A DNA stretch of 64,000 nucleotides, from assembly GCF_003334305.1 (NCBI RefSeq), contig NZ_QOWS01000004.1; one strand, 5' to 3'. Position numbers and translations under genes: made by a program. Shown in pieces: positions 41,335 to 41,989 of this stretch. Source of the DNA: Escherichia coli (GTDB taxonomy: Bacteria; Pseudomonadota; Gammaproteobacteria; Enterobacterales; Enterobacteriaceae). The notes under the pieces are model-generated. The model saw nothing but the letters and a program-made list of their open reading frames with translations, ran no database searches and was not told where the DNA came from. Every line of letters begins with the position of its first letter. The first letter of the stretch is position 1.

Positions 41335-41742
41335 TTATCTTTGCGTCTCTTGTTGCAACAAAATCCGCCGTAAATCCCGCCATTCGGCTTCGTCCATGCT
41401 GTCGGCTGCCAGCCATAAATGTTGCCGTTTACCGCCATCAGAACGTAAACGCAGCATCATGCCGCTCTTAATCATCCACGGTGCTTTGACGATGCACCAC
41501 TCCTGCCCTTGCCAACGCAAACGCCCGTCCATCAACAAGCGAATTTCCCCCTGGCGAGCATTAATACGCCGCTGGCTGCGAACGCAATCAAACACCACCA
41601 GCGAAAGTAACACCATCCATAACGGGGTGTAACTGAGTGGCCAGGGCATGAGTAAAATAACAGCGGCAACCAGCCCATGAATCAGCAAGGAAAGCCACTG
41701 TGCGCGCCAGGAGACGCGCAAATCAGATTGCCACAGGACCAC
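41335..41742 (-). CDS. cptA: Inner-membrane protein, reported toxin-like partner of SdhE
   Basis: 135 aa with two hydrophobic helices; overlaps the sdhE 3' end by 20 nt; formerly ygfX. Confidence 0.85.
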
Positions 41743-41989
41743 GTTCCCGGTTCCGTGTCTGGATGAGTCGGACCATCATTTCCAGTTCTGCATCGGCCGG
41801 TTTACCGTGATTCATCAGCCAGTTAAACAGGTCCGGATCGTCACATTCCAGCAGACGAATAAAGATGCGTTTTTCGTCATCGCTTAAGCTGTCGTACTCA
41901 TGTTCGAAAAACGGCATGATTGAAATATCGAGTTCGCGCATACCACGGCGGCATGCCCAATGAATGCGGGCTTTGTTGTTAATGTCCAT
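41723..41989 (-). CDS. sdhE: FAD assembly factor SdhE
   Basis: 88 aa; RGMRELD motif; formerly ygfY/cptB. Confidence 0.9.

Follow-up and report, generated by a model that had tools for sequence, protein, structure and literature searches.

Is the overlapping gene pair sdhE-ygfX of Escherichia coli, which has been published as the toxin-antitoxin (TA) pair CptA/CptB, a TA system in function as well as in layout, or an operon with a housekeeping role? The pair is a textbook E. coli locus and was already known. We examined it in a window of 64,000 nucleotides (the whole stretch of DNA analysed), which is E. coli chromosome, colinear with the actS..scpA region over its entire length. The additions made here are a predicted pleckstrin-homology (PH)-like fold of YgfX and comparative data that make the TA label less credible; the rest was already known.

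Layout and conservation of the overlapping genes

An earlier note on this DNA, made from the letters alone, had described an 88-aa and a 135-aa gene on the minus strand with a 20-nt overlap, and the list of open reading frames (ORFs), the sequence and RefSeq all bear this out (Table 1). A script run on the minus-strand sequence and its ORFs gave an overlap of 20 nt (GTGGTCCTGTGGCAATCTGA), read in different frames by the two genes. The 1051-bp region from 41200 to 42250 of the window has exact matches (100% identity) in several E. coli chromosomes, and in a chromosome of this kind RefSeq places ygfX and sdhE at identical coordinates with the same overlap, flanked by a convergent fldB and a divergent ygfZ. 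Compared with the E. coli K-12 operon (ygfYX/cptBA) nothing of substance is different: it is the same locus, with identical gene lengths, GTG start, overlap and neighbours (fldB, ygfZ, xerD and dsbC). The GTG of ygfX lies 17 nt before the sdhE stop codon, and upstream of it the ygfX frame stays open for 11 codons only, a stretch with no alternative start. The GGAA and GGGAA runs that precede it could have a role in ygfX initiation, possibly coupled to sdhE translation, and AGGAAG is the putative ribosome-binding site of sdhE.

Table 1. Positions of the genes, protein segments and noncoding elements of the sdhE-ygfX locus in the window
Feature	Position	Strand	Description	Basis
sdhE (ygfY/cptB) CDS	41723..41989	minus	88 aa, ATG start, TGA stop (267 nt)	ORF list and RefSeq
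ygfX (cptA) CDS	41335..41742	minus	135 aa, GTG start, TAA stop (408 nt)	ORF list and RefSeq
sdhE/ygfX overlap	41723..41742	minus	Last 6 codons and stop of sdhE are the first 6-7 codons of ygfX in the other frame	
Weak Shine-Dalgarno-like GGAA (-12..-9) and GGGAA (-6..-2)	41744..41754	minus	Inside the sdhE CDS, upstream of the ygfX GTG	Sequence; conserved among 80 loci
Shine-Dalgarno-like AGGAAG	41993..41998	minus	4-9 nt upstream of the sdhE ATG	Upstream sequence
SdhE RGxxE motif codons	41933..41947	minus	R15-G16-M17-R18-E19	Read from translation
YgfX N-terminal beta-strand	41719..41739	minus	Residues 2-8, predicted pairing with the C-terminal sheet	AlphaFold2, pLDDT 94
YgfX transmembrane helix 1	41650..41709	minus	Residues ~12-31	Hydropathy and model
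YgfX transmembrane helix 2	41581..41637	minus	Hydrophobic core ~36-54; helix runs to 62, followed by Arg-rich RSQRRINAR	Hydropathy and model
YgfX cytoplasmic domain (predicted)	41338..41556	minus	Residues 63-135, six strands and C-terminal helix, PH-like	
Hairpin with 12-bp stem	41302..41331	.	In the 39-bp spacer between convergent fldB and ygfX	Inverted repeat; RNA fold -21.1 kcal/mol, z = -5.06 vs shuffles
Divergent intergenic region sdhE/ygfZ	41990..42231	.	242 bp	Gene map

All 5426 of the complete E. coli genomes searched have the locus, at a coverage of at least 80% throughout, and the median copy number is one. In one of them the region is present twice, the extra copy being on a record classified as a plasmid. 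An independent survey found CptA_toxin to be one of only four 'toxin' groups with a prevalence of at least 80% across all E. coli sequence types (PMC10790755). In order to look beyond the species, we scanned one genome per species with a 5-sequence alignment and obtained 181 relatives. Among the best 80 of these 181 loci, all from Enterobacteriaceae and biased toward a conserved overlap since one of the two scan patterns was the YgfX N-terminus itself, every one has sdhE directly upstream, an 88-aa SdhE, a 20-nt overlap, a GTG start for ygfX and a convergent fldB downstream. The sequence of the overlap is nearly invariant across the same 80 loci, and ygfZ is found divergent upstream of sdhE wherever the contig extends far enough.

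More distant members were checked separately. The overlap measures 20 nt in Providencia (YgfX 38% identical), 26 nt in Pantoea dispersa and P. ananatis (34% and 28%), 20 nt in Plesiomonas (32%), where nadB stands downstream in place of fldB, and 14 nt in one further distant locus (30%), with an identical frame offset in all of them. The E. coli layout of the locus also holds in Providencia and Pantoea. The Shewanella homologues are separated by a gap of 37 bp and do not overlap (PMC8621075), so the overlap characterises Enterobacterales and does not extend to the family as a whole.

It could be argued that the overlap is an annotation artefact, ygfX truly starting at its first ATG (Met32, window 41649) and leaving the two genes apart, given that GTG starts are less common, that the sequence preceding this one is only weakly Shine-Dalgarno-like and that several homologue entries in the databases are N-terminally shorter (97-104 aa). 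However, an alignment of 38 diverse homologues shows conservation of residues 1-31, S11 being near-invariant; the Pfam model Cpta_toxin aligns from residue 2; strand 1 and transmembrane helix 1 are modelled in these very residues with a pLDDT above 90; and RefSeq uses the GTG, which is kept with the 20-nt overlap in 80 of 80 loci. We regard a start at Met32 as very improbable. Since overlap and GTG are found in all 80 Enterobacteriaceae species loci and the residues before M32 are conserved, the overlap is neither a product of chance nor of a mis-called start.

A few singleton proteins (P0003, P0004, P0006, P0008, P0013 and P0020; 166-217 aa) carry both Pfam domains in a single SdhE-YgfX chain. 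A programmed frameshift was considered for them and rejected, as each singleton has a different junction or an internal deletion; most likely they derive from indels or assembly errors around the overlap. Elsewhere in the window, prfB with its known programmed +1 frameshift lies at ~36103-37201 (minus), upstream of recJ in the matching RefSeq record.

The hairpin between fldB and ygfX has no U-tract on either strand. It probably marks the 3' end of both transcripts, as a putative terminator, and may act as a bidirectional transcript end or as a stabiliser. In the spacer between sdhE and ygfZ a promoter scan returned no consensus sigma-70 site, and no palindromic operator-like repeat was found there; the putative promoter of the operon presumably lies within this spacer.

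Divergence, selection and retention in insect symbionts

The four proteins of the locus diverge at different rates. Between the window and Providencia, identities are 77% for SdhE, 38% for YgfX, 68% for FldB and 63% for YgfZ; with Pantoea ananatis they are 70%, 28%, 74% and 67%, respectively. YgfX thus diverges at about 2-3 times the rate of SdhE, FldB and YgfZ at the same loci, while a few of its Trp, Asp and Arg positions are invariant. The median dN/dS of ygfX is 0.063, and 0.049 at the unsaturated distance of E. albertii, compared with 0.027 for sdhE, 0.033 for fldB and 0.066 for ygfZ, all of them rough figures given that dS is saturated for most species pairs. The ygfX gene is under purifying selection.

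A Foldseek search of AFDB50 yielded 502 relatives. Enterobacterales, Orbales and Vibrionales are represented among the matches listed, as are the reduced-genome insect symbionts Regiella, Arsenophonus, Sodalis and Schmidhempelia. Two database entries ascribed to eukaryotes were also encountered: A0A653BMK2 in AFDB ('Tyrosine recombinase XerD [Callosobruchus maculatus]'), which contains a 79%-identical YgfX-like segment, and a protein attributed to Cichorium endivia (P0328), which is 89% identical to E. coli SdhE. Both are probably enterobacterial contamination of eukaryotic assemblies.

A different arrangement was found in Ca. Symbiodolus clandestinus, an insect endosymbiont with a genome of 1.5 Mb (CP152425.1). 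An intact ygfX lies 82 bp from ygfZ (locus L088/L089, 2418-2944), and no sdhE was found within the 5.4-kb ygfX locus. The encoded YgfX keeps the conserved Trp, Asp and Arg residues, and the TCA cycle of this organism has been reported to be incomplete (PMC11322605). Conservation of ygfX without an adjacent sdhE suggests that the function of YgfX is not limited to SdhE.

SdhE and the predicted fold of YgfX

The identity of the 88-aa product as a flavinylation factor, as proposed in the earlier note, was confirmed by profile searches. It matches the NCBIfam equivalog NF008130 ('FAD assembly factor SdhE') with 198.4 bits (the cutoff being 120), residues 1-88 covering profile positions 1-88, and Pfam Sdh5 (PF03937) at 5.8e-26. 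It is also the protein of PDB entries 1x6i (YgfY), 6c12 (with SdhA) and 6b58 (with FrdA), matched at E = 8e-59 over residues 1-88. As a member of the SdhE/Sdh5/SDHAF2 family, the SdhE of the window shows no difference in the protein itself, being a full-length equivalog match with the RGxxE motif present. What sets the locus apart is the overlapping ygfX partner, which the family lacks outside Enterobacterales and their close relatives; SdhE homologues are also found in alpha- and betaproteobacteria and in mitochondria (PMC5042078). G16 and E19 of the motif are likely to matter for SdhE function, since G16R/E19A has been used as a loss-of-function mutant (PMC8621075). E. coli SdhE promotes the covalent flavinylation of SdhA and FrdA, accelerating FAD attachment roughly 20-fold, and ΔygfY/ΔsdhE strains, which are routinely used, are viable and have lost succinate dehydrogenase (SDH) activity and growth on succinate (PMC9557727, PMC5293155).

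The 135-aa product, named 'protein YgfX' in RefSeq, is 98-99% identical to other E. coli variants, from which it differs at one or two positions. It matches Pfam Cpta_toxin (PF07254) at 3e-49, with residues 2-131 on positions 1-132 of the 133 of the model; searches for an NCBIfam model, a PADLOC model and a relative of solved structure returned none. Hydropathy windows give two hydrophobic segments, roughly residues 14-34 and 36-54, and the AlphaFold2 model (m1a57549383e9, built on 38 diverse homologues, mean pLDDT 94.3) agrees, so that the two-helix membrane protein anticipated in the earlier note is upheld. The model runs from a strand (residues 2-8) through two helices (12-31 and 36-62) and six strands (65-112) to a C-terminal helix (118-134). 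Both termini are probably cytoplasmic (N-in/C-in), because the interhelix loop of 7 residues is uncharged and helix 2 is followed by an Arg-rich stretch, in keeping with the positive-inside rule.

In the predicted models, a seven-stranded bent beta-sheet or sandwich is closed by a C-terminal alpha-helix, which is what defines the PH-like superfold. YgfX is accordingly predicted to be a two-helix membrane hairpin bearing a cytoplasmic PH-like domain, and all of the near-invariant residues G65, W77, W82, W110, D114, W121 and R122 fall within this C-terminal domain. PH-like domains, including membrane-anchored bacterial examples, are among the closest known systems to YgfX. At the sequence level no match to the Pfam PH clan was obtained; Cpta_toxin was the sole significant match both for the YgfX of the window and for all 37 aligned C-terminal domains. 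A search of the literature for pleckstrin together with either YgfX or the Pfam name Cpta_toxin found no paper that pairs them. Regarding its function, YgfX was present in a pull-down of YibN, an interactor of YidC (PMC11997395), and in Serratia a deletion of ygfX affected prodigiosin and not swimming.

The toxin-antitoxin label and the likely role of the operon

The TA designation goes back to one E. coli study (Masuda 2012, as cited in PMC8621075 and PMC3985639), according to which overexpression of YgfX leads to growth arrest and a change of shape, YgfX binds FtsZ and MreB, and YgfY neutralises it. A distant pair of A. baumannii has also been reported to be TA-like (PMC8132199). The earlier note had stated that the membrane protein is described as perturbing cytoskeletal proteins, and the published account, as relayed by the same two papers, does speak of inhibition of FtsZ and MreB. 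Co-transcription of the pair has been shown in Serratia as well as in Shewanella (PMC8621075 for the latter). In Serratia no TA phenotype was observed, and SdhE and YgfX were seen to interact with each other (Fineran group, PMC3985639), which contradicts the definition of a type IV TA system as one whose proteins do not bind. The Shewanella homologues failed every TA criterion tested: ΔygfY was viable, ΔygfYX brought no rescue, YgfX caused no change of shape, binding to FtsZ or MreB was not seen, and no interaction between the proteins of the pair was detected by two-hybrid (PMC8621075).

As in TA systems, the two small genes are adjacent and co-oriented in one operon. Their distribution is not the patchy, strain-variable or mobile one of such modules, as reflected by the 5426 of 5426 genomes, the synteny across 80 species and a dN/dS of about 0.06. 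The PADLOC defence-system models gave no family at E <= 0.1 for either SdhE or YgfX. The likeness to the type IV system CbtA/CbeA (YeeV/YeeU) lies in the two-gene operon, in FtsZ and MreB as reported targets and in a neutralisation, likewise reported, that does not involve degradation of the toxin. However, CbtA/CbeA is carried by cryptic prophages and is patchy, whereas sdhE-ygfX belongs to the core genome, with conserved synteny and purifying selection; its 'antitoxin' has a conserved enzymatic-chaperone role of its own, its proteins are reported to interact and its toxicity is irreproducible across species. Being core, single-copy, syntenic, under purifying selection and retained in symbionts, the pair has a genomic signature opposite to that of a mobile addiction module. 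It resembles a TA pair in organisation but probably not in function. Of the TA-like arrangement put forward in the earlier note, the layout and the publication as a TA pair thus stand, while the function it implied fares poorly against the Serratia and Shewanella results, the viable ΔsdhE and the core signature.

The explanation that we favour, and that we consider probable, is that sdhE-ygfX is a vertically inherited Enterobacterales housekeeping operon, with SdhE as a flavinylation factor, YgfX as its membrane tether or buffer and toxicity as an effect of overexpression. The core status of the locus, its fixed synteny, the purifying selection and the retention in insect endosymbionts are all in keeping with a housekeeping operon. 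SdhE, a small soluble chaperone, binds the flavoprotein subunits SdhA and FrdA and speeds the covalent attachment of FAD. Translated from a weak GTG within the last 20 nt of sdhE, ygfX would probably be synthesised at a low level tied to the translation of sdhE. The two-helix inner-membrane hairpin of YgfX would put its small PH-like domain, the likely SdhE-binding surface, on the cytoplasmic face, and YgfX could thereby serve as a tether or buffer that keeps SdhE where complex II is assembled, at the membrane. The arrested growth and altered shape reported on overproduction would then most simply result from a membrane overloaded with YgfX, an effect that SdhE may relieve by binding YgfX. Gene identity, overlap, conservation and predicted fold are the supported parts of this scheme, together with the SdhE biochemistry and the SdhE-YgfX interaction taken from the literature. 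Several points count against this explanation: the overexpression results reported for E. coli and the TA-like pair of A. baumannii; the ygfX kept apart from sdhE in the Ca. Symbiodolus locus; the fact that no loss-of-function phenotype of YgfX tied to complex II is known to us; and a rate of change 2-3 times that of SdhE, which is unusual for a tightly co-adapted partner. A more specific proposal, which is possible and which we put forward only tentatively, is that YgfX is not a toxin but a membrane-anchored PH-like adaptor whose domain, completed by the N-terminal strand, docks SdhE and possibly FtsZ/MreB, coupling flavinylation to the membrane assembly of complex II. If so, the insect endosymbiont that has kept ygfX but no neighbouring sdhE would speak for a further housekeeping role of YgfX, one that does not involve SdhE.

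Two other explanations have to be weighed, and we find both of them unlikely. In one, CptBA would be a bona fide type IV TA system, in which the membrane protein CptA blocks the polymerisation of FtsZ/MreB under some stress, CptB (SdhE) counteracts it and flavinylation is a second job. The small upstream gene overlapping a downstream gene with a weaker start would suit such a system, as would the Pfam family title ('Membrane-bound toxin component of toxin-antitoxin system'), the E. coli report in its second-hand accounts and what has appeared for A. baumannii (PMC8132199), and the upregulation of cptA reported in AIEC under bile, acid and macrophage conditions (PMC11205521). Against it stand a toxicity that was not reproduced in Serratia or Shewanella, the interaction seen in Serratia, and the viability of E. 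coli ΔygfY/ΔsdhE. A caveat on this last point is the design of the Keio deletions: with just some 21 nt of the deleted gene left at its 3' end, the sequence upstream of the ygfX GTG would be removed and expression of ygfX might drop. A core, single-copy locus, syntenic across the family and with no mobile-element signature, is likewise at odds with a TA system, as are the purifying selection on ygfX and its retention in reduced symbiont genomes, in one of them without an adjacent sdhE, and the lack of a PADLOC match and of an upstream operator-like palindrome.

In the other, YgfX would have an inner-membrane role of its own, in the organisation of the envelope or the division site or in membrane-protein biogenesis, its link to sdhE being one of shared transcription and its binding to SdhE incidental. 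Consistent with this are the Ca. Symbiodolus locus, where ygfX sits beside ygfZ and sdhE is missing, in an organism whose TCA cycle is reportedly incomplete, the much faster evolution of YgfX than of SdhE, the YibN pull-down (PMC11997395), the reported binding to FtsZ/MreB, and the nature of PH-like domains as generic protein- and lipid-binding modules. However, from Escherichia out to Plesiomonas the two genes keep their order and overlap out of frame, which argues for selection on co-expression, and the SdhE-YgfX interaction has been reported experimentally (PMC3985639).

The window does contain TA loci of another kind. Two matches to SIB RNA (Rfam RF00113, 137 and 134 bits) lie between fau and serA, at 57613-57763 (plus) and 58005-58155 (plus), opposite two annotated type I toxin genes of the Ibs family. 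These Ibs/Sib pairs near 57.6-58.2 kb, and not sdhE-ygfX, are the genuine TA modules of the window, both of type I. The source strain may have a duplicated Sib/Ibs module, K-12 having a single SibC/IbsC at the fau-serA site. Downstream of zapA, 6S RNA (ssrS) was also detected (56781-56964, plus, 139.8 bits), in agreement with its RefSeq annotation.

Our results carry a warning for annotation. Pfam, JGI and the TA databases label this pair as toxin plus antitoxin, and surveys of TA systems count sdhE-ygfX as such, whereas the comparative evidence, together with several experimental papers, points instead to a core operon for the assembly of the respiratory machinery. If the idea of a PH-like adaptor is true, it would give a conserved 'y-gene' membrane protein a concrete and testable role, and could explain the disturbance of the envelope that follows the overproduction of YgfX.
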